64,000 nucleotides of DNA from Solirubrobacterales bacterium (GCA_046330415.1 JAXLSW010000009.1:3162-67161); one strand, 5' to 3'. Positions 32,622 through 51,931 are shown, numbered from the stretch's first letter. Notes: a model not told the origin generated them from the sequence alone. A program made the numbers and translations.

Positions 32622-32636
32622 GATGGCCGCCGCCCC

Positions 32637-34225: not shown

Positions 34226-34254
34226 GGCGCGGTTGAGGGTCGCTGCGGCGGCCC

Positions 34255-34311: not shown

Positions 34312-34312
34312 C

Positions 34313-34792
34313 ATGGCCACGAAGGCGAGAAGCTCAGCGAGCGTCGAGACACCTCCCGCGGCGGCGTGGGTCGAGCGGGCCGAGGATCAGCTCCGCCAGG
34401 CCGGCCATCGCGCGAGCGCCCCGCGCCGCGCCGTGCTCGAGCTGATCGGCGATCAGGAGTGCGTGCTCACGGCGCGCGAGATCGCCGATGAGCTGCGCGC
34501 CGGCGGCCGAGAGGTCGGCGTCGCCACCGTCTACAGGACGCTCGAGCTGCTGGAGGAGATGCGGCTCGTGCAGCGACTCGACACCGGTGGCGGCTCCGCC
34601 CGCTACGAGCCGGCGATGCCCGACGGCGAGCACCATCACCACCACCTCGTCTGCGACTCCTGTGGGCGCGTCACCCCGTTCTCCGACGACCGCCTCGAGC
34701 GGGCGATCCACGATCTCGGTGAGCGCCTCGACTACCGCGTGGCGGGTCACGACGTCGTCATGCGCGGCATCTGCCCGCGCTGCTCCGCCTGA
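34313..34792 (+). CDS. Fur-family metalloregulator (Zur/Mur-like)
   Basis: PRRAVLELIGDQECVLTAREIADELRAGGREVGVATVYRTLELLEEMRLV. HHHHHLVCDSCG...CPRC metal sites. The start is the ATG at 34313 within ORF 34103-34792. Confidence 0.85.
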   Translation: MATKARSSASVETPPAAAWVERAEDQLRQAGHRASAPRRAVLELIGDQECVLTAREIADELRAGGREVGVATVYRTLELLEEMRLVQRLDTGGGSARYEPAMPDGEHHHHHLVCDSCGRVTPFSDDRLERAIHDLGERLDYRVAGHDVVMRGICPRCSA

Positions 34793-34801
34793 GCGCAGCT
34801 C

Positions 34802-35737
34802 TCAGCCGGAGCCGAGCGCGCAGGCAGCCCCGGCGTTCCCGCCCGTGAACCCGGCGGCGAGCGCCTCCGTGTTCGATCGCATCGCCGCCAGGTACGTGGC
34901 CCCGTCGGAGTCCTCGGGCCCCAGTGTGTCGGCCCAGAGCTCGCCGCCGACGCTCGCACCGGCCTCCTCCGCGATCGTCCGCTCGAGCTCCGCCGTCGTG
35001 CCCTCCTCGGGGAAGACCGCGTTGACGCCGGTGCGGCGGATCGTCTCGACGAGGTCCGCGGTCTCGCCGGCGGACGCCTGCGCCTGCGTGCTCAGCGACG
35101 GGATCGCCGCCCCGACCACCTCGATGCCGAAGCGGTCGGCGTAGTAGCCGAGCGCGTCGTGGCTGGTCACGAGCAGCCGCTCGTCGGCGGGGATCGAGCC
35201 CATGCAGGCGGCGATCGAACGGTCGAGGCGGCGGAGCTCCGCGAGGTAGAGCCTGGAGTTGCGCTCGTACACGTCGACGCCATCGGGGTCGACCTCGGCG
35301 AGCCCGGCCGCGATCGCCTCAACGGCCAGCTGGGCATTGCGGGGGTCCTGCCACCAGTGTGGATCGATCTCGCCGTCCTCCTCCCGGGTCTCGACGTCGT
35401 CGATCAGCGTCAGCTCGGGAGCATCGCTTCCAGAGGCCTCGACAAGCTGATCGAGCCAGGCGTCGACGTCGCCCCCTGAGCGCACGATCAGATCGGCGTC
35501 GACGAGCGACTCGGCGTCGCTGGGGCGAGGCTCGTAGTCGTGGGGGTCCGAGCTGGGGGAGAGGATCTGCGTCACCGCGACCCGGTCGCCGCCGACCTCG
35601 CGGACGAAGTCGGCCACCTGCGGCGTCGTCGCGGCCACGCGCACCGCGGCGCCTGAACCGTCATCCGCCTCCCTGCAGCCGGAGATGAGGACACCTGTGA
35701 GTCCCGCGGCCAAGATGAAACTGATAATCGTTCGCAT
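34802..35737 (-). CDS. Metal ABC transporter substrate-binding lipoprotein (TroA/ZnuA type)
   Basis: Lipobox LISGC. DPHDYEP and DPHWWQDP metal-binding His motifs typical of cluster A-I binding proteins. Confidence 0.85.
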   Translation of the reverse strand: MRTIISFILAAGLTGVLISGCREADDGSGAAVRVAATTPQVADFVREVGGDRVAVTQILSPSSDPHDYEPRPSDAESLVDADLIVRSGGDVDAWLDQLVEASGSDAPELTLIDDVETREEDGEIDPHWWQDPRNAQLAVEAIAAGLAEVDPDGVDVYERNSRLYLAELRRLDRSIAACMGSIPADERLLVTSHDALGYYADRFGIEVVGAAIPSLSTQAQASAGETADLVETIRRTGVNAVFPEEGTTAELERTIAEEAGASVGGELWADTLGPEDSDGATYLAAMRSNTEALAAGFTGGNAGAACALGSG

Positions 35738-35805
35738 CAACGATCGCGGAGTCTACAACTGCAACTGCGCCATGGGGCGCGGCACCCTCGTAGGCTCATC
35801 CGCCG

Positions 35806-38061
35806 ATGGAGACCAGCGGATGGATCAAGGCGGGCGCGCTGGTTCTCGCCATCGTGATGGCGGTGTCCCTCGGGACCGCCGTCCGGAGCGAGGCCGCCGT
35901 CCGCATCGGCGCCGAGCGAATCGAGCTGACCACGCGGGGCGCCGGTGTCGAAGTCCGGCGCGACCCGCTGCGCATCACCTTCACGGACGGCCGCGGCCGT
36001 CCGGTCCTCAGCGAGCTGCAGGGCACCCGCAGGGCGTCTCGGCTCGTCCCGCCGGTCCCGCGCTCCCAGTTCGCGATCGCCGATTCGCCTCCGCCCACGC
36101 TCTACGCGCCGCTCACCTTCCTGGTCGGCTCCACCGGCATCGAGCAGACTCCGGGCAACATCTGGGAGGGCACCCTGCGCTCGGTCACCGAGGGCGGGAC
36201 GGAGTACGGCGCCACCGCGGTCAGGGCCGCGAGGCGCAGCGGACCCGGTGTCCGTCTCGTGCTTGCGACGTCCGACCCGAGTGGACGCAGGCTCGTCGTT
36301 CGCCTCGCGCCGGGGCCTTCGCCAGGGACCATCGCGCTGTCGGCGGCCCCCAATGACCCCGAGGGAGTCGCCGCGATCGGCGACTCCTTCTCCTCAGCCG
36401 GGTCGGAGGCATTCCGGGGCTTCGGTGGTCGCCACGACCGGCTCGATCAGCGCGGCACCGAGTTCTACAACTGGACGCAGCAGGAGAACCTGAGCTCCGG
36501 CTCGGCGAGCGCGTTCACGCCGGTCGTCCCGGGCGGCGAGGATCACCTCTTCCCCAATGGGCCCCACGCCGCCTACTACGTCCAGTCCTCGTTCATCTCC
36601 TCCTCCGGTTACGGCTTCCTGCTCGACCGCGACGAGCTCTCCCACTGGCGGTTGGCCTCCGATCGCCCCGATGCCTGGCAGGTCCAATCCTTCGGCTCGC
36701 GGCTCGACTACGTGGTCGCGCCCGGCACCGCGCCGGAGGCCATCGGCAAGATCACGTCGATCAGCGGTCGCCAGCGTGTTCCCCCGAGGTGGGCGCTTGG
36801 GCAGATCCTCGACCGCGAGGTGATCTACGAGAACGACTCACCGTCGAAGTACGAGGCGGAGGTGCGCCAGGACCTCGCCGACTTCGACCGCTACGGCATC
36901 CATCCCAGCGCCTACCGGATCGAGGGCTGGCAGTTCCTGCCCGACGACGTCCTCGCCGAGATCATCGCCGAGCTACGCCGGCGGGGCATCCATCCCATGG
37001 TCTACTTCCGCGCCTTCGTCGGCAAGGACGAGATCGGGACGGACGATCCGAGCGCATACGACGAGGCGCTCGCCAAGGGCTACGTCGCCACCCATGCAGA
37101 CGGCACGCCGTACACGTTCACCTCCAACTTCAACGCTGATGGAGCGCAGATCGACTTCACCGATCCGGACGCCGTCGCCTGGTGGCAGGATCGCGTCCGC
37201 CGCGCCCTCCAGCTCGGCGCCGACGGGTTCATGCAGGACTTCGGCGAGCAGGTCCTCAGCGACATGCATTTCGCCGACGGCTCCACGGGCGCGACGATGC
37301 ACAACCGGTTGCCGGTGCTCTTCCACCGGGCCACGTTCGAGGCCGTGCGCCGCTTCGAGCGCTCGCATCCGGGGCGTCACATCTTCTACTTCACCCGCGC
37401 CGGCTACTCGGGCAGCCCCGGTTCGGCGCGCTGGGAGTTCGCCAACTTCCCCGGCGACGAGACCACGGACTGGACCCGCTCCTCCGGCCTCGCCTCCCTG
37501 ACGCCGGACATGCTCAACCGCGGCATCGGCGGGGCCTATGGGTTCTCGACCGACATCGGTGGGTACTTCGACGTCGCGCTCTACCAGCCGACCACCAAGG
37601 AGCTGTTCATCCGCTGGGCGCAGTGGGCGGCGCTCTCGCCGATGTTCCGTCTTCACGGCTCAGTCGGCGCCGGCGTTCACATGCCGTGGACCTTCGACGA
37701 GGAGACGCTCGACCGCTACCGCGCTCTCGCTCGGCTGCACGAGCGGGCGATCCCGCTGATCCAGCGGCTGTGGAAGCGCGCGCGGAGGACCGGGATCCCG
37801 ATCGCCCGGCCGCTGTGGCTCAGCTATCCGAAGGACCCGGCCGCCGCTTCGCAGGATCAGGAATGGCTGCTCGGGCCCGACCTCCTGGTGGCACCGGTCG
37901 TCGAGCAGGGGGCGAGCACGCGGCGGGTTCACTTCCCCCGCGGCTGCTGGCGGACCCGCGGTGGTGAGCGCTACTCCGGACCCTCCGACGTCACCGTCGC
38001 GGCGCCGCTCTCGCGTCTGCCGTTCTTCATCCGCTGCGGCGCTCACCCGCTGGATCGCTGA
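35806..38061 (+). CDS. Secreted glycoside hydrolase family 31, intact paralog of the gene at 6986-9460
   Basis: Signal peptide. FRGFGGRHDRLDQRG. GADGFMQDFGE catalytic-region motif. GDETTDW...STDIGGYF. Confidence 0.85.
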   Translation: METSGWIKAGALVLAIVMAVSLGTAVRSEAAVRIGAERIELTTRGAGVEVRRDPLRITFTDGRGRPVLSELQGTRRASRLVPPVPRSQFAIADSPPPTLYAPLTFLVGSTGIEQTPGNIWEGTLRSVTEGGTEYGATAVRAARRSGPGVRLVLATSDPSGRRLVVRLAPGPSPGTIALSAAPNDPEGVAAIGDSFSSAGSEAFRGFGGRHDRLDQRGTEFYNWTQQENLSSGSASAFTPVVPGGEDHLFPNGPHAAYYVQSSFISSSGYGFLLDRDELSHWRLASDRPDAWQVQSFGSRLDYVVAPGTAPEAIGKITSISGRQRVPPRWALGQILDREVIYENDSPSKYEAEVRQDLADFDRYGIHPSAYRIEGWQFLPDDVLAEIIAELRRRGIHPMVYFRAFVGKDEIGTDDPSAYDEALAKGYVATHADGTPYTFTSNFNADGAQIDFTDPDAVAWWQDRVRRALQLGADGFMQDFGEQVLSDMHFADGSTGATMHNRLPVLFHRATFEAVRRFERSHPGRHIFYFTRAGYSGSPGSARWEFANFPGDETTDWTRSSGLASLTPDMLNRGIGGAYGFSTDIGGYFDVALYQPTTKELFIRWAQWAALSPMFRLHGSVGAGVHMPWTFDEETLDRYRALARLHERAIPLIQRLWKRARRTGIPIARPLWLSYPKDPAAASQDQEWLLGPDLLVAPVVEQGASTRRVHFPRGCWRTRGGERYSGPSDVTVAAPLSRLPFFIRCGAHPLDR

Positions 38062-38139
38062 CGTCGCCTCGGGAGGTCGCGTCAAAATCCGTGGACGGAT
38101 CGGATAGCTTCCCCTTCGACTCGACCCGGAGGGAGCCAA

Positions 38140-38526
38140 GTGGACGCCAGCAACCTGAAGCGATTCGCCCTGTTCAAGGACGTAGAAGAGAGCGCCTTGG
38201 GCAAGATCGCGCCCTACACGATGCTGGTCGAGTTCGCCGAGGGCAAGACGATCATCCAGGAGGGCGGCTTCTCCAACGACTTCTACGCGATCGACGAGGG
38301 AACGGCCAGGGTGGAGCGCTCCGGTGAGGAGATCGCGACGCTCGGTCCCGGCGACGTCTTCGGCGAGCAGGGTCTGCTCGAGAAGCAGGAGCGCTCAGCC
38401 TCGGTGATCGCGACCTCGCCGCTGCGCGCGCTGAAGATCGAGCACTGGGAGATCCCGCGCATGCGCCGCGCGATGCCCGAGGTGCTGGAGCAGCTCCAGC
38501 GCACGGTCGAGGAGCGAAGCTCCTAG
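38140..38526 (+). CDS. Stand-alone cyclic-nucleotide-binding domain protein
   Basis: LFKDVEESALGKIAP...FAEGKTIIQEGG...FYAIDEGTARV...LGPGDVFGEQGLL...RSASVIA is the cNMP-binding fold signature. Confidence 0.8.
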   Translation: MDASNLKRFALFKDVEESALGKIAPYTMLVEFAEGKTIIQEGGFSNDFYAIDEGTARVERSGEEIATLGPGDVFGEQGLLEKQERSASVIATSPLRALKIEHWEIPRMRRAMPEVLEQLQRTVEERSS

Positions 38527-38576
38527 CGCGAGCTCCCGTCGCGGGCGGTACGCTGCCGCACCAGTACAAGTACATA

Positions 38577-38735
38577 CGGCCGGTGGGCCAGGGAAGTCCG
38601 GTGAGAAACCGGCGCGGTCCCGCCACTGTGACCGGGTGAGGACGTCGCACGACGCGAGTCAGCCACTGGGAGCCGACGAGGCCCCGGGAAGGCGCGGCAT
38701 CAGGACCCGGAAGCCAGGAGACCTACCTCCGGCCG
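38577..38735 (+). ncRNA. Cobalamin (AdoCbl-type) riboswitch
   Basis: P1 CGGCCGG (38577-83) pairs with CCGGCCG (38729-35). Core GGGAAGTCCGGTGAGAAACCGGCGCGGTCCCGCCACTGTGA, a second GCCACTGGGA...GGGAAGGCG, and the B12 box GAAGCCAGGAGACC (38711-23). Confidence 0.85.
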
Positions 38736-38770
38736 CAGCCATGTAAACCCTCGAGGAAAGGGTGGCATCG

Positions 38771-39704
38771 ATGCCTCTCAATCACTCACGTTCCCGCGCG
38801 ATCGCCGCAGCCCTGATGGGCTCGCTGCTCGTCGCGCTCTCGTTCGCTTCGATCGCCGCGGCGGCGAAGACCAAGGCGGTTCCGGCCGAGCTCCGGGTCG
38901 TCGACGGCAAGGGCCGCGTGCTCGCCGAGCAGACCCAGTACACGGGCAACCCGTCGACCATCAAGACCGACCCGAAGGCGACCTGCTTCGGCCCCGATGA
39001 CGGCGGCTCAGGCGACAAGGTCGAGATCCCGGCGCCGACCGCGATGAGCCTGCTGGCCGACGGTGGCGCAACCGACAGCGCCATCAAGCCCCTGTCGATC
39101 ACCGACGCGTTCAGCTTCGGTCTCGGCCTCTGCGGGATCGGCAAGACCGTCGCGCCGTCCACGGGCGCTGGGCACTGAACGTCAACCACGCTCAGGCGGA
39201 GTCCGGCGGTGACTCGACGACGGTCAGCTCCGGCGACGACTCCGCACGGTCCTCTGGTACCTCGTCAAGGACTTCAACGACCCGTCTCCGGCGGAGCTGG
39301 TCCTGAAGGCGAAGCCGGCCAAGAACGGTGAGATCCCGGTTCAGGTCTTCGCCTACGGCGCCGACGGCAAGAAGACTCCCGCGGTCGGAGCGGGCGTCAC
39401 CGGCGCCGACGACGTCACCGACAAGAAGGGCAAGACGGTCGTCGCCGCCGACGGCAAGGTCGTCGACATCGTCGCGACTCTCGACGGCGCGCTTCCGTCC
39501 AACGAGGCGTCCGTCTGCACGGTCAAGGCCAAGCAGTGCCCGTCGGGCTACGCGGGGATCGTCGCCGGGACCAAGGGCGACGACAAGATCACGATCGACA
39601 CCCCGGTCACGGTCCTGTGCGCCGGCGGCAAGGACGTCGTCAAGGTCAAGGGCGGCGTCCGGTTCAAGGCCAAGGGCTGCGAGCAGGTCCAAGAGTCGAA
39701 GTAG
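38771..39704 (+). pseudogene. Secreted DUF4430 (transcobalamin beta-domain-like) protein. As assembled it needs two -1 frame corrections.
   Basis: Signal peptide MPLNHSRSRAIAAALMGSLLVALSFASIAAAA. Frame 2 stops at 39178. The text continues as (W)ALNVNHAQAESGGDSTTVSSGDD in frame 1, then VLWYLVKDFNDPSPAEL...GTKGDDKITID...ESK* in frame 3. Frame 3 is a 450-nt coding-looking stretch with no start codon. Confidence 0.65.
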
Positions 39705-39746
39705 GGGGCTCCCGTCCGCCCGCCCGCAGTCGCCCTCGCCGCGACG

Positions 39747-40727
39747 ATGCTGATCGGCATCGTCGCGGCGGGCGGCTGCGGGTTCGGGCCGGGCGAGTCG
39801 GAGCCGGGGGAGGCGAATCTGCGGGTCACGCGAGACTTCGGCTCCGAGCTGATGGTCGACGCCACGCTCACCGATCCAACCGAGTCCGACTCGGTCGTCC
39901 GCTTTCTCGACGACAACGCCGAGGTCGAGACCTCCTACGGCGGCAACTTCGTCGACGCGATCAACGGCGTCGCCGGGAGCACCGTTCAGGGTGGTGACGA
40001 CGACTGGTTCTTCTTCGTCAACGGCTACTACTCCGAGATCGGCGCCGGCGAGGCCCGGGTCCACGCGGGCGACCGGATCTGGTGGGACTACCGCGACTGG
40101 CAGCAGGCCTACCGCGTTCCGGCCGTGGTCGGTTCCTTCCCGGAGCCGTTCCTGCACGGTGAGAGCGGCGGGGAGGCGCCGGAGGTGACCCTCGAGTGCG
40201 TCGGCGGGGCCGGGCAGGGCGATGCTTGCGCCACGGTCGCCGACGCTCTCGACCATGCCGGGATCGATGCGGAGGAACGCGACCTCGATCGGCCTGAGGC
40301 GAGCGGCGACGCGTTGCGGATCCTGGTCGGCGAGTGGTCCGACCTCAGCGACGATCCCGCCGCCGCCCAGCTCGAGGACGGGCCCTCCGCCAGCGGCGTC
40401 TACGCGACGGTCGCATCCTGCGGTGATCAGGGTGGCGATGGCGGCGATGGCGGCTACCGGCTCGAGGTGCTCGGCTCCGACGCGAAGCCGCGGCTGCAGC
40501 TCGCCGACGCGGGGTTCGTGGCGGCGGTTCGCCATCGCGAGGATCCGCCCACCTGGGTCGTCGCCGGCACCGGTCCCGACTCCGTGCAGAGGGCCGCGGC
40601 GCTGCTCGGCGAGGACACGCTTCAGGACCGCTATGCCGTCGCGGCCGGGCCCTCGGGAGAGCCGGTCCCGATGCCGGCTCCCGACGAGCTCGACATCCCG
40701 GAGAAGGAGTCGGCCCCATGCGGCTGA
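39747..40727 (+). CDS. DUF4430-domain lipoprotein
   Basis: Lipobox-like IVAAGGC. SVVRFLDDNAEVETSYGGNFVDAINGVAG...DWFFFVNGYYSEIGAGEARVHAGDRIWWDY is the DUF4430 signature. Confidence 0.75.
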   Translation: MLIGIVAAGGCGFGPGESEPGEANLRVTRDFGSELMVDATLTDPTESDSVVRFLDDNAEVETSYGGNFVDAINGVAGSTVQGGDDDWFFFVNGYYSEIGAGEARVHAGDRIWWDYRDWQQAYRVPAVVGSFPEPFLHGESGGEAPEVTLECVGGAGQGDACATVADALDHAGIDAEERDLDRPEASGDALRILVGEWSDLSDDPAAAQLEDGPSASGVYATVASCGDQGGDGGDGGYRLEVLGSDAKPRLQLADAGFVAAVRHREDPPTWVVAGTGPDSVQRAAALLGEDTLQDRYAVAAGPSGEPVPMPAPDELDIPEKESAPCG

Positions 40728-41647
40728 CGAGCCCGCTGGCCTACGCGCCCCGCCGGGGCCCGCTCGGCACCGCGCGCCCATGGATCGCCGCGGTCTTCCT
40801 ACTGCCCCTCGCGGTTGCCGCTTTCACATTCGCCAACCCGATCGTGCTGCTGGCTGCGGGCGCCGCCGCCCTTCTCGCCGGGGTCCTCTCCGGGGCCGGT
40901 GCCAGCGTGCGGGCGCCGCTGCGCTGGACGATCGGCCTCGGGGTGATGGTCATCGCCGTCAACGCGATCGCTTCCCAGCGCGGCGCGACGATCCTGCTTC
41001 GCGGCTGGGAGATGCCGGTCCTCGGCCAGATCGATGTCAGCCTCGAGGCGCTCGTCGAGGGTGCGGTGCTGGCGCTGCGGATCATCGTCGCGCTGCTCGT
41101 CTTCTCGGTCTGGTCGGCGTGCGTGGACCCCGACCGGATCCTGCGTGCGATCCGCCCGATCGCCGCCCGCTCGGCGCTCACCGCGACCCTGATCGCGCGG
41201 CTCGTCCCCCTCGCGGCCGCCGACGCCGCGCGGCTCGGCGAGGCGAGCGCGCTGCGCGGTCCCGCGGCGACTCCGGTCGGCAAAGCCGCGATCGCGCGCC
41301 GGCTCGTCGCCGGGGCCCTCGATCGCTCCGTCGACGTCGCCGCCACGCTCGAGCTCCGCGGCTACGGCCTCGGCACGCGGTCGCGGATGCCGAGACACCG
41401 GCGCGTCGCCGGCGAGATCCCGTTGCTCGTCTGCGGCTTGCTCTCGCTGGGGATCCTGATCGCCGCCGGGCTCAGCGGCGCGGCGGCCTTCGACGCCTAT
41501 CCGCGAATCGATATCGACACCGACCTCGCCACGTTCGCACTGGCCGGAGCGATCGTCGCGCTCGCCTGGCTGCCCTTCGCGCTCGAGACCCTGCGCCTGC
41601 GCAGGCGCCCGCGGGTGAGCGTTGGGGAGGTGGTCCGCGTTGGCTGA
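40718..41647 (+). CDS. ECF transporter transmembrane (T) component, CbiQ/EcfT family
   Basis: Polytopic membrane protein. ...RSALTATLIARLVPLAAADAARLGEASALRG...LDRSVDVAATLELRGYG carries the Ala-Arg-Gly coupling-helix-type motifs. Overlaps both neighbours. Confidence 0.8.
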   Translation: MRLTSPLAYAPRRGPLGTARPWIAAVFLLPLAVAAFTFANPIVLLAAGAAALLAGVLSGAGASVRAPLRWTIGLGVMVIAVNAIASQRGATILLRGWEMPVLGQIDVSLEALVEGAVLALRIIVALLVFSVWSACVDPDRILRAIRPIAARSALTATLIARLVPLAAADAARLGEASALRGPAATPVGKAAIARRLVAGALDRSVDVAATLELRGYGLGTRSRMPRHRRVAGEIPLLVCGLLSLGILIAAGLSGAAAFDAYPRIDIDTDLATFALAGAIVALAWLPFALETLRLRRRPRVSVGEVVRVG

Positions 41648-43268
41648 TGTCGCGCTCAGCTGCAGCGGCCTCGACTACCGCTATCCGGGTTCGCCGAGCC
41701 TCGCCCTTCGCGGGATCGACCTCGAGATCACCCGCGGTGAGTTCGTCGTCTTGGCGGGCTCGTCGGGCTCGGGCAAGAGCACGCTCCTTCGCGCCGCCTG
41801 CGGGCTGGTCCCTCACTTCCACGGCGGCGAGATCGCCGGAGACGTCAGGGTCGGCGGCCGCACGACGCGCGAGATCGGGCCGGCCGAGCTCGCGAGCGCC
41901 GTCGGTTTCGTCGCCCAGGAGCCCGAGACGCAGGTTGTCTCGACCACCGTCGGCGCCGAGCTCGAGCTGCCGATGGAGCTGCGCGGGGCGGGTGCCGTCG
42001 AGACCGCAAGGGCGGTCGAGGAGGCTGCGCTGGCCCTCGGTATCGAGGGGCTGCTCGAACGCACCACGGACACCCTCTCCGGCGGCGAGCTGCAGCGTGT
42101 CGCGCTCGGCGCGGCGCTGGTCACCGGTCCCTCGCTCCTGCTGCTCGACGAGCCCACATCGCAGCTCGACCCCGTCGCCGGTGACGAGCTGATCGCGCTC
42201 CTGCGGCGGCTCAACGAGGAGTGGGGGGTGGCCGTGCTGCTTGGTGAGCACCGGCTCGAACGCTGCCTCGCCGCCGCCGACCGGGTTGTGGCGCTCGACG
42301 CCGGGGAGAAGGTCTTCGACGGGCCGACGGATGAGTTCGGCGGCTACGCGCGTCGCGCGGCGCCCGCTCTCGCGACGCCGGTCATGCGGCTCTTCGAGCT
42401 CGCGGGGATCGATTCCAGCCCGGCGACGGTCAAGGGCGCGCGCGAGAAGCTAGTGGCTCTGGGTCGGCTGGACGAAGCGGCGGCGGGAACCCACACCGCG
42501 CCCGGGCTTCCACCGCAGCGCCGCGACGGCACAGCGGCGCTGCGCGCTCGCAACCTGCAGGTCGAGCTCGAGGCGGCCGAGATGGTGAGGCCGGTGCTGC
42601 GGGGCGTCGACGTCGAGGTCAGCGCCGGGGAGCGGGTTGCGCTGATGGGTCCCAACGGGGCCGGCAAGAGCACGCTGCTTCGCACCGCCGCCGGTCTGCT
42701 CCCGGCGAGCTTCGGCTCGATCGAGGTCCCGAGCGGTTGCGCGCTTCTCTCACAGCGTCCCGACGACTACCTCGTCCGCGAGCGCGTCGGCGACGAGCTG
42801 CCGGGCGAGGCGGGCCGCGCGGCGCTCGCCGCGGTCGGGCTCGACGTCTCCGCCGACGCCGACCCGCGCGATCTCTCCGGCGGTGAGCGTCAGCGACGCG
42901 CGCTCGCCATCGCGATGGCGGGCCGTGGGGCCGGTGGCTCGGCGCCCGGGCTCGTCTGCCTGGACGAGCCGACGCGCGGGCTTGACCGCGCCCGCAAGGA
43001 CGCGCTCGCGGCCTGGATCGAGGAGCTCGCAGCGGCGGGCTCGGCGGTCGTCGTCGCCACCCACGACGTCGAGTTCGCCGCCCGGTTCGCGACCCGCGTC
43101 GTCCTCCTCGCCCGCGGCCGCGTGATCGCGGACGCCGATCCCCGCGAGGCCCTGGGGGGCGGCTGGTACTTCGCGACGGAGACGGCGCGGATCACCGGTG
43201 GCCGAGCGGTCACGCCGGAGCAGGGGGCGGCCCTGCTGCTCCCCGCCCGCGAGGGGGCGGAGCTGTGA
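41622..43268 (+). CDS. Fused tandem ECF/ABC ATPase (EcfA1-EcfA2-like, CbiO family)
   Basis: Two complete cassettes: GSSGSGKST/LSGGELQR/LLLDEP and GPNGAGKST/LSGGERQR/VCLDEP. The start may be GTG 41622 or TTG 41640. Confidence 0.85.
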   Translation: MGRWSALADVALSCSGLDYRYPGSPSLALRGIDLEITRGEFVVLAGSSGSGKSTLLRAACGLVPHFHGGEIAGDVRVGGRTTREIGPAELASAVGFVAQEPETQVVSTTVGAELELPMELRGAGAVETARAVEEAALALGIEGLLERTTDTLSGGELQRVALGAALVTGPSLLLLDEPTSQLDPVAGDELIALLRRLNEEWGVAVLLGEHRLERCLAAADRVVALDAGEKVFDGPTDEFGGYARRAAPALATPVMRLFELAGIDSSPATVKGAREKLVALGRLDEAAAGTHTAPGLPPQRRDGTAALRARNLQVELEAAEMVRPVLRGVDVEVSAGERVALMGPNGAGKSTLLRTAAGLLPASFGSIEVPSGCALLSQRPDDYLVRERVGDELPGEAGRAALAAVGLDVSADADPRDLSGGERQRRALAIAMAGRGAGGSAPGLVCLDEPTRGLDRARKDALAAWIEELAAAGSAVVVATHDVEFAARFATRVVLLARGRVIADADPREALGGGWYFATETARITGGRAVTPEQGAALLLPAREGAEL

Positions 43269-45232
43269 GCTGGCAGGCTGCGTCCTTCACGATCCTCGGG
43301 CTTGCCCTGCTGGGCGGCTTCGTCTGGTTCGAGCGCTCGCGACCCCCCGCTCGCCTGGTCGCCGCGGTGGCGGCGATGGCGGCGCTCGGGGTCGCCGGGC
43401 GGCTCGCGCTCGCGCCGATCCCCAACGTCGTCGCCACCACCGACGTGGCGCTCCTGGCCGGCTACGCGCTTGGCGGAGCCCCCGGCGTCGCGGTCGGGGC
43501 GCTGTCGGGGCTCGTCTCCAACTTCTGGCTCGGGCAGGGGCCCTGGACCCCGTGGCAGATGGCGGGGTGGGGGATGGTCGGGATCGCCGGCGCGGTGCTC
43601 GCGCGGGCCAGCGGGAGGCGGATGAGCAGGCTCGGGCTGGCCTGCGTCGGCGCGCTCGCGGGTTTCGCGTACGGAGCGCTCCTCGATCTCTCGGTGATGA
43701 TCGAGTTCGGCGGGGAGCAGTCGCTGGACCGGTATCTGGCGCTCAGCGCACGCGGTCTCCCCTTCAACATCGCGCACGCGGCCGGTAACTTCGTTCTCAT
43801 GCTCGCCGCGGGACCCGCCCTCGTCCGCATGCTCGATCGCTATCGCGATCGGTTCGCGTACCGCTGGAGCGATTCTCCGCTCGGCCGTTCTGTCGCCTCC
43901 CTCGCGCTCGTCGCCTGCCTGCTGACCCCGCTGCTCTCCCCTGACCGCGGCGCCGCGGCCCAGGGTCGCGACGGCGCCCGAAGCTGGCTGATCTCCGCCC
44001 AGAACGACGACGGCGGCTACGGCACCGGCCCCGACGTCGACTCCGCCACCGACATGACCGGGTGGGCGATGGTCGGCCTCGCCGCCGCCGGCGTCAACCC
44101 GCGCGACGTTGCGACCGGCGGCAACACCCCAGTCGAGTACCTGCGCAAGAGCATCGACGACATCTCCTCCATCGGCGACCTCGAGCTTACGATCCTCGGG
44201 CTCGAGGCCTCGGGGCTCGATTCGCGCGCCTTCCAGGGGCGCGACCTCGTCGCCGAGCTGCGCAGCAAGGAGCGCGACGACGGCTCCTACCAGGGTCAGG
44301 TGAACCTGACCGCCTTCGCGATCCTCGCCCAGCGCTCCGCCGGGGTGGAGGGAGCCAACGTCGGCAAGCCCGCCAGCTGGCTGCGCTCCGTCCAGATCCG
44401 CAACGGCGGCTGGGCGTCGGTGCCGAAGGGGGAGAGCGAGCCTGATTCCACCGGTTCCGTGATGCAGGCGCTGAAGGTCGCGCCGGGCGCGCACGGCCCG
44501 ATCCAGGACGGGGCGAAGTGGCTGGAGCGCAACCAGCACAAGGACGGTGGCTGGTCGCTGACGGAGGGTGGGACCTCCAACTCGCAATCCACCGCGTGGG
44601 CGATCCAGGGGCTCACCGCGGCCGGGATCAGCGCCGGGACGATCCGCAACGACGGCAACAGCGGCATCGACTTCCTCTACTCGCGTCAGTCGTCGAGCGG
44701 CTACTTCGCCTACTCCGGCTCGAGCGACCAGACGCCCGTGTGGGTGACCTCCCAGGCACTGATGGGCGTCATGAAGGTGCCCTTCCCGATCGCCGCCGTG
44801 CCTCGTGAGAAGCCCGACGACAACGGCGCCGACAACGACTCCACCGGCGGGACGTCAACGCCCCCGAGCAGCTCGCCGCCCACCTATCCGACCTCGCCGA
44901 GCCCGAGCCTGCCCGGCGGCGGACTCGACCTCGGTGGCCTCGGCGGCGCCGACTCCGGTGGCTCCAACGGCGGCGGCAACCCGGGTCCCGGCGGCTCCAG
45001 CCCCGGATCTGGGCTGCCCGACGGCCTGCCGGAGGGCGAACTTCCGACCGGTCCCGACGACGGCGAAGACGCCCCGCTGGACACCTTCGCGCAGAGCGCC
45101 GCGACGCCGCTGCCGGAGCTCCCCTCGCAGGACTCCCCGCTGCCGGGGACGATGGTCTTCCTGGCCGGTATCGGGCTGCTGGCGGCCGGTCTCGGTGCGG
45201 GGTTCCTCCACTACCGCCGCCGCCAGCTCTAG
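43265..45232 (+). CDS. Fusion protein: ECF S-component-like membrane domain, prenyltransferase/squalene-oxidase-repeat (alpha-alpha toroid) domain, P/S/G-rich stalk, and a sorting-signal-like C-terminus
   Basis: N-terminal 5-6 TM helices (IPNVVATTDVALLAGYALG..., GPWTPWQMAGWGMVGIAG...). Five repeats: NDDGGYG, RDDGSYQ, RNGGWAS, KDGGWSL, SSGYFAY. Tail LPGTMVFLAGIGLLAAGLGAGFLHYRRRQL. GTGA overlap with the ATPase gene. Confidence 0.7.
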   Translation: MSWQAASFTILGLALLGGFVWFERSRPPARLVAAVAAMAALGVAGRLALAPIPNVVATTDVALLAGYALGGAPGVAVGALSGLVSNFWLGQGPWTPWQMAGWGMVGIAGAVLARASGRRMSRLGLACVGALAGFAYGALLDLSVMIEFGGEQSLDRYLALSARGLPFNIAHAAGNFVLMLAAGPALVRMLDRYRDRFAYRWSDSPLGRSVASLALVACLLTPLLSPDRGAAAQGRDGARSWLISAQNDDGGYGTGPDVDSATDMTGWAMVGLAAAGVNPRDVATGGNTPVEYLRKSIDDISSIGDLELTILGLEASGLDSRAFQGRDLVAELRSKERDDGSYQGQVNLTAFAILAQRSAGVEGANVGKPASWLRSVQIRNGGWASVPKGESEPDSTGSVMQALKVAPGAHGPIQDGAKWLERNQHKDGGWSLTEGGTSNSQSTAWAIQGLTAAGISAGTIRNDGNSGIDFLYSRQSSSGYFAYSGSSDQTPVWVTSQALMGVMKVPFPIAAVPREKPDDNGADNDSTGGTSTPPSSSPPTYPTSPSPSLPGGGLDLGGLGGADSGGSNGGGNPGPGGSSPGSGLPDGLPEGELPTGPDDGEDAPLDTFAQSAATPLPELPSQDSPLPGTMVFLAGIGLLAAGLGAGFLHYRRRQL

Positions 45233-45250: not shown

Positions 45251-46975
45251 ATGATCACCCGGGACTCAGCGCTTGCCGCCCTCAGCGGAGAGCGCTTCGA
45301 CGTCGTCGTGATCGGCGGCGGGGTGACGGGCGCCGGCGTCGCGCTCGATGCCGCATCGCGCGGCTACTCGACCGCGATCGTCGAGCGCGACGACTGGGCC
45401 ATCGGGACCTCGAGCCGCTCCTCGAAGATGGTCCACGGAGGGCTTCGTTACCTGCAGAACTTCGATCTCGGGCTGGTGCGAGAGGCGCTGCTGGAGCGGC
45501 AGCTCATGGTCCACCTCGCACCGCACCTCGTCTACCCGACGCCCTACCTCGTCCCTCAGCTCGGTGACGATCGCCGCGACGTCAGGGTCGGGATCGGGCT
45601 CAACATGTACGACGTGATGGCGACCACGCGGGTCGGCCAGGGACGGCGCCAGCGCGGCGGCGGGCGCCGTGAGCGCGAGCGAGTCGCGGACCTCGCAGGG
45701 GGCGATGTCCCGCCCGAGTCCTGGGCGCCGGACCGCCACCGGACGATCCCCGGCGAGGAGGTCGTCGAGATGATCCCCGCGCTCGCATCGCGCGAGCCCA
45801 GGTCGGCCTACCTCTTCTACGACTGCCAGACCGACGACGTCCGCCTCGTCCTGACGATCCTCGGCGAGGCGGAGCGCTACGGAGCCGTGATGGCGAACCG
45901 ACTCGAGGTCACCTCGTTGCTCGAGCGCAACGGCAAGGCCGACGGGGTCGTCTGCCGGTGCGGCGAGAGCGGCGCGACGGTGGAGATCCAGGCCGACAAC
46001 GTGATCAACGCGACGGGGGTCTGGGCCGACCGGATCCGTCCCGACGAGATCCTCGACGAGACCGAGGTGCCGAGGATCGCGCCGAGCCGCGGCACCCACC
46101 TGACGCTGCCGCTGGAGAAGCTGCCGCTCGAGCACGCTGCGTGCATCGTCCCGGCGGGGAGCGGCCGCACGATCTTCGTTCTGCCCTGGTACGGACGGGT
46201 CCTGGTCGGTACCACCGACAACGACTACGACGGCGACATCGATCACGTCCGGCCCGGAGGCGACGACATCGACTACCTGCTCGACGCGGTCAACTCCTAC
46301 TTCGAGACCGAGTTGGGGCGCGGCGATCTGACCGGCGCCTACGCCGGGGTCAGGCCGCTGATCTCGACCGGCGATCCGAAGAAGTCGGTGGACATCTCGC
46401 GCAAGGCGGAGCTCTACGAGACCTCCTCGGGCCTGCTGACGATCACCGGCGGCAAGCTGACCACCTGGCGTCGCATGGCGAAGCTGGTCGTCGACCGGGT
46501 CGCGATGAGGGACGGCAGCGAGCAGCCCTGCCGGACCACCGAGGTGCCAGTGGGGATGGCGGCCCGCGAGGAGGATCTCGCGCCGCCCGACGGCGTCGAT
46601 GCCGGAGCCCTCCCGGAGGGCTATGCCGAGCAGCTCGCCTTCCGTTATGGACACGCGTCGCGCGCGGTCCTGGCCGTCGCCGCCGAGCGCCCGGAGCTGG
46701 CAGCCCCCATCGTCGAGGGTCGCCCGGATCTCCTCGCGGAGGTCGTCATCGCTGCGCGCCGCGAGCAGGCCCGCTCGCTTGCCGATGTCCTGCTGCGACG
46801 GACGCGCCTCGGGATCCTCGCAGCGCCGCAGCTGCGGACCGCCGAGTCGGTCGCGGCGGTCGCGGCAGCGCTCGGCGGTGAGCTCGGATGGAGCGAGGAC
46901 GACATCCGCGCCGCAGCCGAGGCGTGGCCCGGCCAGCTCGACGCCGAGGGCGCCGACCCCGCCGCGAGCGCCTGA
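45251..46975 (+). CDS. glpD: FAD-dependent glycerol-3-phosphate dehydrogenase
   Basis: DVVVIGGGVTGAGVALDAASRGYSTAIVERDDWAIGTSSRSSKMVHGGLRYL. About 575 aa. Confidence 0.9.
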   Translation: MITRDSALAALSGERFDVVVIGGGVTGAGVALDAASRGYSTAIVERDDWAIGTSSRSSKMVHGGLRYLQNFDLGLVREALLERQLMVHLAPHLVYPTPYLVPQLGDDRRDVRVGIGLNMYDVMATTRVGQGRRQRGGGRRERERVADLAGGDVPPESWAPDRHRTIPGEEVVEMIPALASREPRSAYLFYDCQTDDVRLVLTILGEAERYGAVMANRLEVTSLLERNGKADGVVCRCGESGATVEIQADNVINATGVWADRIRPDEILDETEVPRIAPSRGTHLTLPLEKLPLEHAACIVPAGSGRTIFVLPWYGRVLVGTTDNDYDGDIDHVRPGGDDIDYLLDAVNSYFETELGRGDLTGAYAGVRPLISTGDPKKSVDISRKAELYETSSGLLTITGGKLTTWRRMAKLVVDRVAMRDGSEQPCRTTEVPVGMAAREEDLAPPDGVDAGALPEGYAEQLAFRYGHASRAVLAVAAERPELAAPIVEGRPDLLAEVVIAARREQARSLADVLLRRTRLGILAAPQLRTAESVAAVAAALGGELGWSEDDIRAAAEAWPGQLDAEGADPAASA

Positions 46976-47032
46976 GCGCCGCGTCCCACCGCGCGGGCGC
47001 TTCGCCGGGGCGCCGATATCCTTCCCCGCCTC

Positions 47033-48442
47033 ATGCCAGCACAACTTGAAAACGCGCATCTCGCCGACCTGCACGCGCTCGCCGCGGAGCTCGGTGTGGA
47101 GCGCTTCCGCATGCTTCCCCGCGACGAGCTCGCCGCCGCCATCCTCGAACGCGATCCCGATGCGAGCGTCCCCGAGCGCGAGCCCGAGCCCGAACGCGAC
47201 GGGGACGATGTCGGCTCCGATGCCGAGGAGAGCGGACTCTCTGAGCGCTCGGGAGCCCGCCGCCGCGGACGCCGTGGTGGCCGTGGCCGCCGCGGTGGTG
47301 AGGGTTCGCGAGACGATCGCGACCGCGACCGCGATGGCGACGGGGACGGCGATGGCGAGGACTCCGCCGAGGCGGAGCAGGAGACCGGCGAGCCGGTCAC
47401 GGGCATCCTCGACATCACCCCGCGCGGTCATGGATTCATCCGGATCTCGGGCCTCGGATCCGACGAGGACGACGTCTACGTCTCCCCGTCGCAGATCAGG
47501 CGCTGCGAGATGCGCCGCGGCGACGAGGTCTCGGGCCCGGCCCGCAAGCCGCGGCGAGGCGAGCGCTACCCGGCCCTGATCCACGTCGACACGATCAACG
47601 GCGTCGAGCCCGGCGCCGACGCGAAGCGGCTGACCGACGCGACGCCGGTGCATCCCAGCCGCCGGATCCCGCTGGTGCCCGCCGCGGGCGCGAGCGAGGA
47701 CGAGGCCGTCTTGATTCGCTCGATCGACCTGCTCAACCCGCTCGCCCGCGGTCAGCGGGTGCTGATCGAGGCGGGGGCGGGAACCGGTCGCACGACGCTG
47801 CTGCGCGCGCTTGCCGCGTCACTCGGCGGCGTCGAGGAGCTCGAGCTCGTCGTGCTGCTGATCGACGAGCGCCCCGAGGAGGTTGCGGATTGGACCGAGC
47901 GCGTCGGTGAGGACGCGGTTGCGATCGCCACCGCCGACATGCGCTCCGGCGAGCAGCTTCGCCTCGTCGAGCTCGCCTTCGGCCGCGCCTCGCGCCAAGC
48001 CGAGCGCGGGGCGGACGTCGTCCTCCTCGTCGACTCGCTTTCGCGCATCGCCGTCGCCGCCGACGACCCCGATCGCGTCAAGCCGATCTTCGGCGCCGGT
48101 CGCGAGACGGAGGAGGAGGGCGTGGGCTCGCTCACGGTCATCGCCACGACGCTCGACGACGACTCCGACGAGGGCGACGTGCTGCGTGCGCTCGACACGA
48201 CGGAGAGCTCCCGGATCGTCCTCGATCGTGAGCTCGCCGTCGCCGGCGTCTACCCGGCGATCGACGCCGGCGCCGCGCGCGTCGCCGGCGAGGAGCACGT
48301 CCGCGACGAGGCTGAGCTGACCGCGGCGCGGGCGCTGCGCGCTGAGCTGGCGGGGCTGACCGCGGCGGAAGCCGCGGCGCGCTTGCGCGAGCGGATCGCC
48401 GACACGCCCGACAACGCGGCGCTGCTTGCCTCGCTGAGCTGA
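47033..48442 (+). CDS. rho: Transcription termination factor Rho homolog with an atypical ATPase core
   Basis: Rho_N (LADLHALAAELGVERFRMLPRDELAAAILE). R/D/G-rich insertion. CSD-like VTGILDITPRGHGFIRISG. LLIDERPEEV and VVLLVDSLSRI. The P-loop reads GAGTGRTT (Arg where the canonical Lys sits). Confidence 0.8.
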   Translation: MPAQLENAHLADLHALAAELGVERFRMLPRDELAAAILERDPDASVPEREPEPERDGDDVGSDAEESGLSERSGARRRGRRGGRGRRGGEGSRDDRDRDRDGDGDGDGEDSAEAEQETGEPVTGILDITPRGHGFIRISGLGSDEDDVYVSPSQIRRCEMRRGDEVSGPARKPRRGERYPALIHVDTINGVEPGADAKRLTDATPVHPSRRIPLVPAAGASEDEAVLIRSIDLLNPLARGQRVLIEAGAGTGRTTLLRALAASLGGVEELELVVLLIDERPEEVADWTERVGEDAVAIATADMRSGEQLRLVELAFGRASRQAERGADVVLLVDSLSRIAVAADDPDRVKPIFGAGRETEEEGVGSLTVIATTLDDDSDEGDVLRALDTTESSRIVLDRELAVAGVYPAIDAGAARVAGEEHVRDEAELTAARALRAELAGLTAAEAAARLRERIADTPDNAALLASLS

Positions 48443-48457
48443 GCTGAGGCCCGGGTC

Positions 48458-48793
48458 ATGGCGCTCGTCGTCGGGTTCGTCGGGTTCATCTTCCTCGACC
48501 CGCCGCTCAACGTCGTCGCACTTGCCGCGGGCGCCCTACTGGAGGTCGGCGAGGCCGTCCTCTGGGTCCGCTACCTGAAGCGTTTCCGGGTGACGACAGG
48601 CGCGGAAGGTCTCGTCGGCCAGCGCGCCGACGTGGTCGAGGCGTGTGAGCCGCGCGGTCGCGTCAGGATCATGGGGGAGTTCTGGCATGCCGTCTGCCCG
48701 GAGGGGGCGACGGAGGGGGAAGCCGTCGAGGTCGTGGCGGTCGACAACCTCACGTTGACGGTGAAGCCGCTTCCAGACGCGCCACCGCGGTAG
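48458..48793 (+). CDS. NfeD-like (OB-fold C-terminal domain) membrane protein
   Basis: N-terminal hydrophobic helices, then GLVGQRADVVEACEPRGRVRIMGEFWHAVCPEG...GEAVEVVAVDNLTLTV. Confidence 0.7.
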   Translation: MALVVGFVGFIFLDPPLNVVALAAGALLEVGEAVLWVRYLKRFRVTTGAEGLVGQRADVVEACEPRGRVRIMGEFWHAVCPEGATEGEAVEVVAVDNLTLTVKPLPDAPPR

Positions 48794-48807
48794 GTGGCGC
48801 AGGCCCT

Positions 48808-49272
48808 CTACGGGCGGTAGGCGAGCCCGCCCCAGGACGGTTCGCGGGAGAGCTCGATCGGCTCGCAGTCGCGATCCGGCTGGACGTAGCCGAAGGTGTT
48901 GGTGCGGTCGTCGAAGACGATGTCGAGCTCGCCCTCCTTGACTCGCTGGTCGAGCCAGGCGCCGCGGAAGACGAGGCGGCGGATCCAGTGGACGAGGCTG
49001 CGCTGGGAGCCGTCCACGAGCTCACCCCAGTTCTCGTTGACGTGCTCTCCGAGCTCGGAGGCGGGCTCGCGGATCTCGCCGTTGACGGCGAGCTCGACGA
49101 GGTCCTGGAGCTCTTCGGGGTCGAGGCCGGGGTGGGTGAAGTCGAGCTTCACCGCGGCCTGCTCGACCCGCTGGCTGAAGTCGTTCTCGTTGAATGCGAA
49201 GCGCAACTCGCCGTACTCGAGAACGTAGTCGGAGCCCGACTCGTAGTTGCCTCTGCGTGTTGCTCTTTCCAT
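48808..49272 (-). CDS. Acidic hypothetical protein (no family recognised)
   Basis: 154-aa ORF with a coding-like codon pattern. Divergent from the Tad operon. Confidence 0.5.
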   Translation of the reverse strand: MERATRRGNYESGSDYVLEYGELRFAFNENDFSQRVEQAAVKLDFTHPGLDPEELQDLVELAVNGEIREPASELGEHVNENWGELVDGSQRSLVHWIRRLVFRGAWLDQRVKEGELDIVFDDRTNTFGYVQPDRDCEPIELSREPSWGGLAYRP

Positions 49273-49469
49273 AGGACGAAACTCCCGCCGCTGCCCTTGA
49301 GTGCCTGTGGGGTGGGCGGGAGGAGCATGTTGTCCGAAGGCCCGTCGCGGGGGCCGCGCAGAACCCTTCCGTGAACGCAGGCTTGCACCCAGTCGGCCCG
49401 GGGAGGAAAGCGCGGCGCGGCGTCGACGGCTAGGTGGGGCGCGGCGGGGTGGACCGGGGTGGAAGGGGC

Positions 49470-49808
49470 ATGAACATATCGCTGACCCCGCGCCGGCTCA
49501 GGTCACTGCCGATGGTCTGGGCGCTCGGTATCAACGTGCCCGCCGCCACCCGCTTCGGGTCGCGGCTACTCGGCCTGGCGCTGCTCCCCCGGGAGCGGGC
49601 CGGGCCCGGCCTGCTGATCCCGCGCTGCCGCAGCGTCCACACGTTCGGAATGCGCTTCGCCCTCGACGTGGTCTTCCTCGACGACGGCGGCGAGGAGATC
49701 CGGCGCGCCCGGATCGGGCCGTGCCGGTTCGCCCGCGAGCGCCGTGCCCGAGCGGTGCTCGAGCTTCCGGCCCGCCCGGGGGGCGCTGCGAGCGGCGGCG
49801 GGGTGTGA
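49470..49808 (+). CDS. DUF192 (COG1430) domain protein
   Basis: GGAAGGGG RBS. ...GLALLPRERAGPGLLIPRCRSVHTFGMRFALDVVFLDDGGEEI matches the DUF192 core. Confidence 0.7.
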   Translation: MNISLTPRRLRSLPMVWALGINVPAATRFGSRLLGLALLPRERAGPGLLIPRCRSVHTFGMRFALDVVFLDDGGEEIRRARIGPCRFARERRARAVLELPARPGGAASGGGV

Positions 49809-49813
49809 GGGAC

Positions 49814-51887: not shown

Positions 51888-51931
51888 TGGAGGTCGCGAC
51901 GATGACGACGCGAGGTTCACGGCGGGAGCGC

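Follow-up and report, generated by a model that had tools for sequence, protein, structure and literature searches.

Transporters of the energy-coupling factor (ECF) class are, to our knowledge, defined as operating without an extracytoplasmic binding protein, and we know of studies of CbrT, the B12-specific S-component, only as a small free subunit. Here we describe an operon in which a CbrT-like domain is joined within one polypeptide to a toroid that is predicted to lie outside the cell. It is located in a 64,000-nucleotide stretch of DNA from a Solirubrobacterales bacterium (GCA_046330415.1, JAXLSW010000009.1:3162-67161; the whole stretch is referred to below as the window, and has a G+C content of 71%). 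Five same-strand genes, designated g1 to g5 in order, are situated 3′ of a cobalamin riboswitch, and we consider it quite probable that they form a corrinoid-repressed operon for a CbrT/CbrUV-type ECF importer of group I, which has its own dedicated module, together with cell-surface capture proteins.

Several components of such a system have been described before. CbrT of Lactobacillus delbrueckii has been shown to transport both cobalamin and cobinamide, with nanomolar affinity, and the structure 6FNP is that of the ECF-CbrT complex (PMC5997447). CbrT had been predicted as a B12 S-component by Rodionov et al. in 2009 (as related by Santos 2018, PMC5997447), and CbrT/CbrUV(T) serves as a signature of B12 uptake in comparative genomics (cbrUVT is listed in PMC8123684). 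Independently of the transporter literature, the passages of Burroughs et al. 2007 that treat this subject (Biol Direct 2:4, PMC1796856) predict that secreted transcobalamin-like SLBB proteins, often present as two paralogues, are scavengers of B12 or its precursors, and place them with alpha/alpha toroids in operons that also encode CbiO and CbiQ; SLBB is there the beta-grasp family that includes the DUF4430 domain. DUF4430 has likewise been described as the C-terminal domain of TCN proteins (PMC4350170). Because these reports (the operons of Burroughs et al., the 2009 prediction, the CbrUVT signature and transport by ECF-CbrT) precede it, the locus described here is a member of a known and partly characterised kind, within which the fusion of CbrT to a toroid is an unusual architectural feature.

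A conserved five-gene operon behind a cobalamin riboswitch

The riboswitch, its leader element and the five genes are arranged as follows.

38567–38744, + strand: cobalamin riboswitch aptamer RF00174 (full-length Rfam match)
38748–38766, + strand: 19-nucleotide (nt) expression-platform element CCCTCGAGGAAAGGGTGGC (invariant in 15 aligned leaders)
38771–39703, + strand: g1, secreted divergent DUF4430/SLBB protein, continuing into a beta-rich domain (open reading frames and comparison with orthologues)
39747–40727, + strand: g2, DUF4430 protein with a lipobox-like Cys11 and two alpha/beta domains after it (Pfam, AlphaFold2 and Foldseek)
40718–41647, + strand: g3, ECF T component, EcfT/CbiQ (Pfam CbiQ and NCBI name)
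41622–43268, + strand: g4, fused double ECF ATPase EcfA-EcfA′, start uncertain (two ABC_tran domains)
43265–45232, + strand: g5, whole gene of 655 amino acids (open reading frame)

The open reading frames (ORFs) overlap at 40718/40727 (g2/g3), at 41622/41647 (g3/g4) and, through a GTGA, at 43265/43268 (g4/g5), and these overlaps suggest co-translation. Related loci (L001, L002 and so on) were obtained by scanning for relatives of g5 in one genome per species, and the best 80 of 204 loci were analysed; all of them are from Solirubrobacterales, Conexibacter, Thermoleophilia or unclassified Actinomycetota-type metagenome-assembled genomes (MAGs). Seventy of these 80 are upstream-complete, and the remaining 10 are cut off 5′ of the operon. 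First, the order g1-g2-g3-g4-g5 is kept in every upstream-complete locus (70/70, tblastn), with g1 identities ranging from 85% down to about 30%. Second, the riboswitch is linked to the operon in the same 70 loci, since a strict B12-box pattern is present 4.1–4.7 kb upstream of g5 in 58 of them and an Rfam riboswitch match, of 66–86 bits, in all 12 others. That both the order and the riboswitch are so retained argues that the arrangement is not a product of chance.

In the window, RF00174 is matched at 38567–38744 on the + strand over the whole of the model (positions 1–189 of 189); the score is 80.4 bits (E 3.4e-18), where the gathering score is 31.5. Both GCCACTG elements and the B12 box GGAAGCCAGGAGACC are readable in the raw sequence, the conserved core and box elements GCCACTG and AGCCAGGAGACC are present in the same-strand 5′ leader, and the aptamer helices are retained in a consensus fold of 15 leaders (this was used in place of the minimum-free-energy fold of the lone leader, which is uninformative, z-score −0.57). 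Just 3′ of the P1 helix lies the element CCCTCGAGGAAAGGGTGGC, which is exact in 60 loci and occurs a single time in the window, where 0 occurrences are expected by chance. It is predicted to form a hairpin (CCCU / loop CGAGGAA / AGGG) that contains the Shine-Dalgarno sequence, and it is positioned 4 nt upstream of the ATG of g1 (38771), a start that is conserved across loci. No intrinsic terminator was found 3′ of the aptamer. From the hairpin with its Shine-Dalgarno sequence and the lack of a terminator, we infer that the operon is probably controlled at the level of translation, with the riboswitch and hairpin stopping translation of the operon once intracellular coenzyme B12 would suffice. 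A search by eye for a conserved complement between an aptamer loop and the loop of the Shine-Dalgarno hairpin (L5-L13-type kissing) gave no convincing candidate. The riboswitch is adjoined on its 5′ side by a gene for a 128-amino-acid protein with a cyclic-nucleotide-binding domain (38140–38526, + strand), which is also found upstream of the operon in L002 (3922–4308); no connection with the operon is apparent.

An earlier note on this DNA had described a well-formed cobalamin riboswitch ahead of a run of same-strand genes overlapping at the three sites given above, and had pointed to conserved riboswitch linkage in relatives as a check. The Rfam match, the ORFs of g2 to g5 and the upstream-complete loci bear out these three points in turn. 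Its general description of the locus, as an operon under a B12 riboswitch that encodes an ECF importer and accessory proteins located outside the cytoplasm, is likewise upheld by the riboswitch, by CbiQ and ABC_tran matches and by homology to CbrT. The gene order that it proposed holds for the identities of g2, g3, g4 and g5 (from Pfam matches and CbrT homology), but g1 is not one intact ORF.

The ECF module and the S-component domain of g5

The product of g3 matches Pfam CbiQ with 33.4 bits (gathering score 25) and carries the NCBI name 'energy-coupling factor transporter transmembrane component T' (MFN8150106.1); we take it to be CbrV-like in Rodionov's naming. That of g4 has 548 amino acids and contains two ABC_tran domains (149 bits, Pfam), and its best NCBIfam models are ECF_ATPase_1 (236 bits) and ECF_ATPase_2 (231 bits), neither of which reaches its equivalog cut-off (315 and 330). 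It is presumably CbrU-like in the same naming, 'duplicated ATPase' being, as we assume, the term of SEED and Rodionov. The TTG start of g4 is uncertain, because the product beginning at this codon is not in the protein collection. A T component, two ATPase domains and an S-component are thus found in one operon, which is the composition that defines a group I (dedicated module) ECF transporter. Two extra hydrophobic segments of g3 (residues 234–288, 41417–41584) are located C-terminal to the CbiQ match (residues 23–218), and these might contact the added transmembrane helices of g5.

The names of these two families raise the question of whether the locus encodes instead a CbiMNQO-like cobalt transporter under B12 control, with the surface proteins having some unrelated role. 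The Pfam CbiQ match of g3 and the CbiO-like character of g4 (193 bits against the CbiO model TIGR01166) would fit such a transporter, and B12 riboswitches commonly govern cobalt uptake. However, CbiQ and CbiO are names that Pfam and TIGR apply generically to the T and A components of ECF transporters, and the score of g3 against TIGR02454 (ECF_T_CbiQ) is 17.9 bits, with a cut-off of 111.8. Moreover, the S-domain of g5 matches CbrT and no CbiM family match was returned. As genes for CbiM and CbiN are both lacking from the operon, we regard cobalt transport as highly improbable.

The segments of g5 are as follows.

43265–43861, + strand: residues 1–199, extra N-terminal transmembrane helix and CbrT-like S-component domain (phmmer, profile search and hydropathy)
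43880–43936, + strand: residues 206–224, seventh or eighth transmembrane helix, predicted to run from the cytoplasm to the outside (hydropathy; AlphaFold2 helix 205–224)
43967–44809, + strand: residues 235–515, predicted extracytoplasmic alpha/alpha toroid (Pfam, AlphaFold2 and Foldseek)
44819–45223, + strand: residues 519–653, predicted disordered linker and C-terminal transmembrane anchor (AlphaFold2 and hydropathy)

Residues 33–199 of g5 align with residues 13–178 of the 182 in 6FNP_A (phmmer, E 6.1e-12), and this is the sole match in the Protein Data Bank (PDB) at E≤1; a profile search gives E 4e-14 for the same pair. No other membrane chain in the complex has the size of an S-component, and the 182-residue chain is therefore taken to be CbrT. 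The Pfam family ECF_trnsprt is matched with 22.1 bits, where its gathering score is 30.7. Judged by these alignments, the S-domain of g5 is homologous to CbrT, a characterised B12 S-component, and it is because of the clarity of this homology that the system is assigned to the CbrT/CbrUV type. The homology and the riboswitch control together lead us to infer that the S-domain would bind and transport cobalamin and cobinamide.

This leaves some latitude as to the cargo, which may consist of corrinoids that are not yet complete, such as cobinamide, cobyrinic acid diamide or further precursors, taken up for salvage instead of or besides B12, with the surface proteins widening or setting the specificity. 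Three precedents are in accord with this: CbrT carries cobinamide as well as cobalamin (PMC5997447), cbrUVT is entered under 'cobyrinate diamide uptake' in a review (PMC8123684), and the proposal of Burroughs et al. (PMC1796856) is worded as 'B12 or its precursors'. A riboswitch that senses the end product suits either cargo. Nonetheless, no salvage genes (cobU/S/T, cbiB/P) are present beside the operon or among the neighbouring genes scanned, and the window does not discriminate between the cargoes, to which the locus is equally well suited. We consider precursor uptake rather unlikely, and it would in any case refine the corrinoid importer and not compete with it.

The start of g5 (residues 1–30, 43265–43354) departs from a simple S-component in having an extra transmembrane helix at residues 4–22 (hydropathy and AlphaFold2), and the Ala-rich first transmembrane helix is invariant in homologues. 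The loop following the N-terminal helix, W21-x-E23-R24-S25-x-P27-x-x-R30, does not vary among 17 homologues, and this hints at a contact in the cytoplasm that has been conserved. The top 120 homologues of g5 are likewise fusions, of about 620–680 amino acids, and the fusion family is large, comprising 453 clusters at 50% identity (E≤1e-30), with its distant members likewise joining an S-component to a toroid. One of these distant members, P0311 (816 amino acids), has an extra C-terminal PAP2 (phosphatase) domain.

The toroid and its tether

S-components have both termini in the cytoplasm. Since the C-terminus of the S-component is therefore cytoplasmic, and since it is followed by the transmembrane helix at 206–224, the toroid of g5 is predicted to be outside the cell. 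The toroid is modelled by AlphaFold2 with high local confidence (pLDDT ~95), residues 519–627 are Pro/Gly/Ser-rich and predicted to be disordered (pLDDT <50 over 519–630), and the C-terminal anchor helix at 628–653 (hydropathy segment 630–648) ends in an RRRQL tail. An extended disordered linker and the transmembrane anchor at the C-terminus would thus tether the toroid on the outside. The C-terminus was also considered as a sortase anchoring signal (LPGTM, transmembrane helix, RRRQL), and this was rejected, as LPXTG is not conserved in the family consensus.

Three Pfam families are matched by the toroid above threshold (SQHop_cyclase_C, SQHop_cyclase_N and Prenyltrans), and its profile matches squalene-hopene cyclase with 2.9e-18, so that the earlier description of g5 as an S-component-like domain joined to a prenyltransferase/squalene-type repeat domain holds for both of its halves. 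Structural comparison using Foldseek places the single-domain cyclases 8PAK and 8PAJ at the top, with a TMt of 0.61 (TM-score normalised to the length of the target), followed by drimenyl-diphosphate synthase, prenyltransferase beta subunits, the type II terpene cyclase MstE and the thioester (TED) domains of complement C5. There is also a weak TED_complement match, from which no thioester role is proposed.

With squalene-hopene cyclases, drimenyl-diphosphate synthase and prenyltransferase beta subunits as the best matches, the toroid could be supposed to be an enzyme, either a class II terpene cyclase or a prenyltransferase, acting on envelope lipids and fused to the S-component for reasons unrelated to ligand capture. 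We give this scarcely any credence, because g5 contains no D.DD motif (the DxDD that is catalytic in cyclases) and because the toroid is predicted to be extracytoplasmic, between the transmembrane helices at 206–224 and 628–653. In addition, its identity to the matched enzymes is 12–19%, and its gene is always accompanied by those for DUF4430 proteins and for an ECF module, with a B12 riboswitch in control. Given its fold class and this context, the toroid may reasonably be thought to act as the counterpart of the transcobalamin alpha domain.

The DUF4430 proteins g1 and g2

The g2 protein matches Pfam DUF4430 (PF14478) with 53.6 bits against a gathering score of 23.8, and is identical to an NCBI 'DUF4430 domain-containing protein'; together with g3, g5 and the N-terminal fragment of g1 it is identical to GenBank proteins of a Solirubrobacterales bacterium MAG, the source of MFN8150103 to MFN8150106 (locus tags U0R24_03110 onward). 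Its AlphaFold2 model (pLDDT 82) yields Foldseek matches to the bacterial DUF4430 structure 3U7Z, haptocorrin (4KKI) and intrinsic factor (2PMV), and superposes on the transcobalamin beta domain (5NO0/5NP4) with a TMt of 0.65 and a root-mean-square deviation of about 3.5 Å. PDB searches by sequence, using either the lone g2 sequence or a profile, gave no meaningful match, and the link to transcobalamin comes from the structure search only. The proposal in the earlier note that DUF4430 is akin to the transcobalamin beta domain agrees with these structural matches. In g2 the last 200 residues make up alpha/beta domains with a weak likeness to BcsB domains (Foldseek). Cys11 is invariant in 23 homologues, in a lipobox-like context.

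The start of g2 is unusual. In L002 the ancestral start is a GTG (5470–5490) after GGGGA, giving a signal peptide of ~21 residues (MRPSAV...AAGGC). At the corresponding position the window (39701–39760) has GTC and L001 (5450–5500) has ATT, and the sole canonical start left in the window is the ATG at 39747, with 10 residues, none of them basic, before the lipobox Cys. Either g2 has an unusually short signal peptide or a non-canonical start is used.

The family of g1 is built of a signal peptide, a divergent DUF4430-like domain and a beta-rich domain, and its long forms add RTX calcium-binding repeats. Intact orthologues have about 250–355 amino acids, and DUF4430 is matched at E≤0.01 in 28 of 33 of them; alignment of the g1 and g2 families with hhalign gives a probability of 87.7% (E 3.4e-6). 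In the window the gene is broken into three frames. Frame A extends from 38771 to 39178, with a TGA stop at 39176–39178 and a product of 135 amino acids, frame B covers ~39169–39248, and frame C covers 39249–39703, with a stop at 39701–39703. DNA alignment with L001 and L002, in both of which g1 is a single ORF of 313 amino acids (at 4521–5450 in L001), attributes the breaks to a 1-nt deletion and an 8-nt insertion ~80 nt apart, both of them inside the most conserved motif, GFW.LNVNH...GD.LWYL, in the DUF4430 core. As first stitched together, g1 had no Pfam match at E<0.01, and after repair guided by the orthologues it matches DUF4430 with 19.8 bits, which is short of the gathering score (23.8); for the orthologues in L002 and L001 the match has 26.7 and 21 bits. 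Of the two DUF4430 proteins claimed in the earlier note, g2 is therefore secure, but g1 is frame-shifted and has a weak match to DUF4430 at the level of its family only.

The orthologues of g1 fall into two size classes, one of ~250 amino acids with a Cys-x-x-x-Cys tail and the other of ~310–355 amino acids with RTX nonapeptide repeats. In the long class Pfam HemolysinCabind is found in 10 of the 33 orthologues and a Lys/His-rich tail is sometimes present; the g1 of the window is of the long class with few RTX repeats.

The break in g1 is either a recent pseudogene mutation or an assembly error, so that the genome works with g2 alone or else g1 is intact. If it is real, the operon is decaying here, and the premature stop may lower the expression of g2 to g5; we put this at a little short of an even chance, the alternative being that the indels are artefactual. 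Several observations favour decay: there are two indels ~80 nt apart within the conserved core, frame C is without a start codon of its own, and NCBI annotates g1 as the 135-amino-acid fragment only (hypothetical protein MFN8150103.1). The other long genes of the window look intact, so that the break is local and the assembly is not generally error-ridden. On the other hand, repaired g1 is no more diverged from L001 (85% identical) than is g2 (80%), so any inactivation must be very recent. Moreover, operon genes are split over 2–3 frames in L011, L026, L075 and other related loci from long-read MAGs, a pattern consistent with the indel errors typical of long-read assemblies.

Comparison with described capture and uptake systems

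The L. delbrueckii ECF-CbrT complex (6FNP) resembles the present system in having a CbrT S-domain (E 6e-12), ECF T and A components and a B12-linked context. The differences lie in the organisation. L. delbrueckii CbrT is a stand-alone protein of 182 amino acids, without a fused ectodomain, that uses a shared group II ECF module, whereas in the present locus the energising module has its genes within the operon and g5 adds an N-terminal transmembrane helix, a second one after the S-domain, a toroid of 280 amino acids, a disordered linker and a second anchor. With 655 residues g5 is outside the size of the CbrT family, which is that of a stand-alone membrane protein of ~180–200 amino acids. The predicted CbrT/CbrUV family has a dedicated module with a duplicated or fused ATPase, and this corresponds to g3 and g4 if the naming is applied as above.

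The operons of Burroughs et al. 2007, in the passages devoted to them, resemble the locus in containing secreted or surface SLBB (that is, DUF4430) proteins, a toroid partner, a CbiO-like ATPase and a CbiQ-like membrane protein. In those passages the toroid is either fused to SLBB or alone, and its fusion to an S-component is not described. The word 'riboswitch' has 0 occurrences in the paper (PMC1796856), and its examples are mainly from Firmicutes and archaea, not Thermoleophilia. The operon lsa1836-1840 of L. sakei consists of the same five parts, namely an S-component, a fused ATPase pair, EcfT, a toroid-like and a transcobalamin-beta-like protein, but there they are unfused, and the S-component is reported to be without cobalamin-binding residues (bioRxiv 10.1101/864751). 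The statement in the earlier note that no characterised system has such a composition is consequently not sustained, as the operons of Burroughs et al. and the experimentally studied L. sakei operon precede it. A limited search of the literature found no description of a covalent CbrT-toroid fusion with added transmembrane helices.

Compared with transcobalamin, intrinsic factor and haptocorrin, g2 superposes on the beta domains (TMt ~0.65, root-mean-square deviation 3.4–3.6 Å) and an alpha/alpha toroid is present in both. The alpha and beta parts are however on separate polypeptides here (g5 for the one, g1 and g2 for the other), and they are tethered to the membrane and coupled to a transporter rather than acting through receptor-mediated endocytosis. 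Finally, the BtuCDF-BtuB, BtuG/BtuH and BtuM systems would share with the locus the high-affinity capture of corrinoids outside the cytoplasmic membrane, and have in common with it control by B12 riboswitches. Among the products of the five genes, profile scans detected neither a BtuF-type binding protein nor a TonB-dependent receptor nor a protein like BtuM. The locus had been put forward as distinct from BtuCDF/BtuB, BtuG, BtuM and CbrT alike; no homology to the Btu systems was detected, but for CbrT the distinction is not supported, as the S-domain is its homologue (E 6e-12).

Proposed mechanism

In the corrinoid importer that we favour, g2 (as a lipoprotein) and g1 (as a secreted protein) would supply transcobalamin-beta-like DUF4430/SLBB domains, and one such domain jointly with the g5 toroid would bind a corrinoid at the cell surface. 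The corrinoid would then be handed to the covalently attached CbrT domain directly beneath, and ATP hydrolysis by g4, relayed via g3, would power its import.

There are several points that weigh against this. First, the closest relatives of the toroid, in both sequence and structure, are terpene cyclases and prenyltransferases: chains of transcobalamin, intrinsic factor and haptocorrin are absent from its top 50 Foldseek matches and from its sequence profile matches at E≤1. The identification of the toroid as a transcobalamin alpha domain that the earlier note had made is thus not reproduced by the comparison, in which cyclases and prenyltransferases dominate. Second, the AlphaFold2 model of the g5 S-domain is of low confidence (pLDDT 50–70), and the placement of the domains is unreliable (predicted TM-score, pTM, 0.50). 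Third, g1 is disrupted in the window by its two frame changes, and the g2 signal peptide is atypically short here. Fourth, no B12-dependent enzymes or B12 biosynthesis genes are found among the 20 neighbouring ORFs scanned (27043–38526 and 45251–62145), and nearby corroboration of a demand for B12 is therefore lacking. Fifth, a limited literature search found no paper showing corrinoid binding by a bacterial DUF4430 or toroid protein.

The last point concerns the cargo, for the only experimentally studied five-part operon, that of L. sakei, has been linked to heme uptake and not to that of B12 (bioRxiv 10.1101/864751). Uptake of heme, or of another non-corrin tetrapyrrole, could be proposed for the present locus as it was for lsa1836-1840, where the tie to heme is experimental and heme has been docked in the modelled alpha/beta pair. 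However, the cobalamin riboswitch, which is universal among the upstream-complete loci (70/70), is not expected for a heme importer and makes a heme cargo very unlikely, and the S-domain is homologous to the B12-specific CbrT.

The fusion also invites a more specific idea, namely that an S-component fused to an extracellular capture toroid is a built-in equivalent of a substrate-binding protein, with DUF4430 proteins closing over the toroid in the manner of the transcobalamin beta domain and the corrinoid being passed into the CbrT cavity. We advance this tentatively, and think it rather unlikely as it stands. If true, the S-component could not freely dissociate or exchange, and toppling must work while it is tethered, which would be a mechanistic variant that ECF models at present do not cover; a bacterial split-domain origin of the animal B12 carriers would gain support as well.

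Neighbouring genes in the window

A ZnuABC-like metal-uptake operon (ZnuA / ABC-3 / ABC_tran, with two ABC-3 permease genes) is located at 31785–35740 on the − strand, ~3 kb upstream of the operon and on the opposite strand to it. It abuts a region of ~1 kb (30767–31785) that contains no ORF passing a simple coding filter based on G+C at the third codon position. The sole other Rfam match in the window is a transfer RNA gene at 20949–21021 (+ strand; RF00005, 61.6 bits). Downstream are Tad-pilus-like genes (SAF/CpaB-like, T2SSE ATPase and T2SSF) at 51222–54530 (+ strand) and, farther along, a cell-wall cluster (penicillin-binding protein transpeptidase and Mur ligase) at 58880–62145 (+ strand).

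Significance

The general idea of surface proteins resembling transcobalamin in association with a B12 importer has been in the literature since 2007–2009, and what is gained here is therefore a tractable variant and not a new principle. In this family CbrT is joined to a surface toroid, always together with two transcobalamin-beta-like proteins and under a B12 riboswitch. It could be used to test whether the transcobalamin-like parts of bacteria bind corrinoids, by which route a captured corrinoid reaches the S-component, and whether an S-component is still able to topple when it is tethered. These questions bear on the competition for B12 by monoderm (single-membrane) bacteria.

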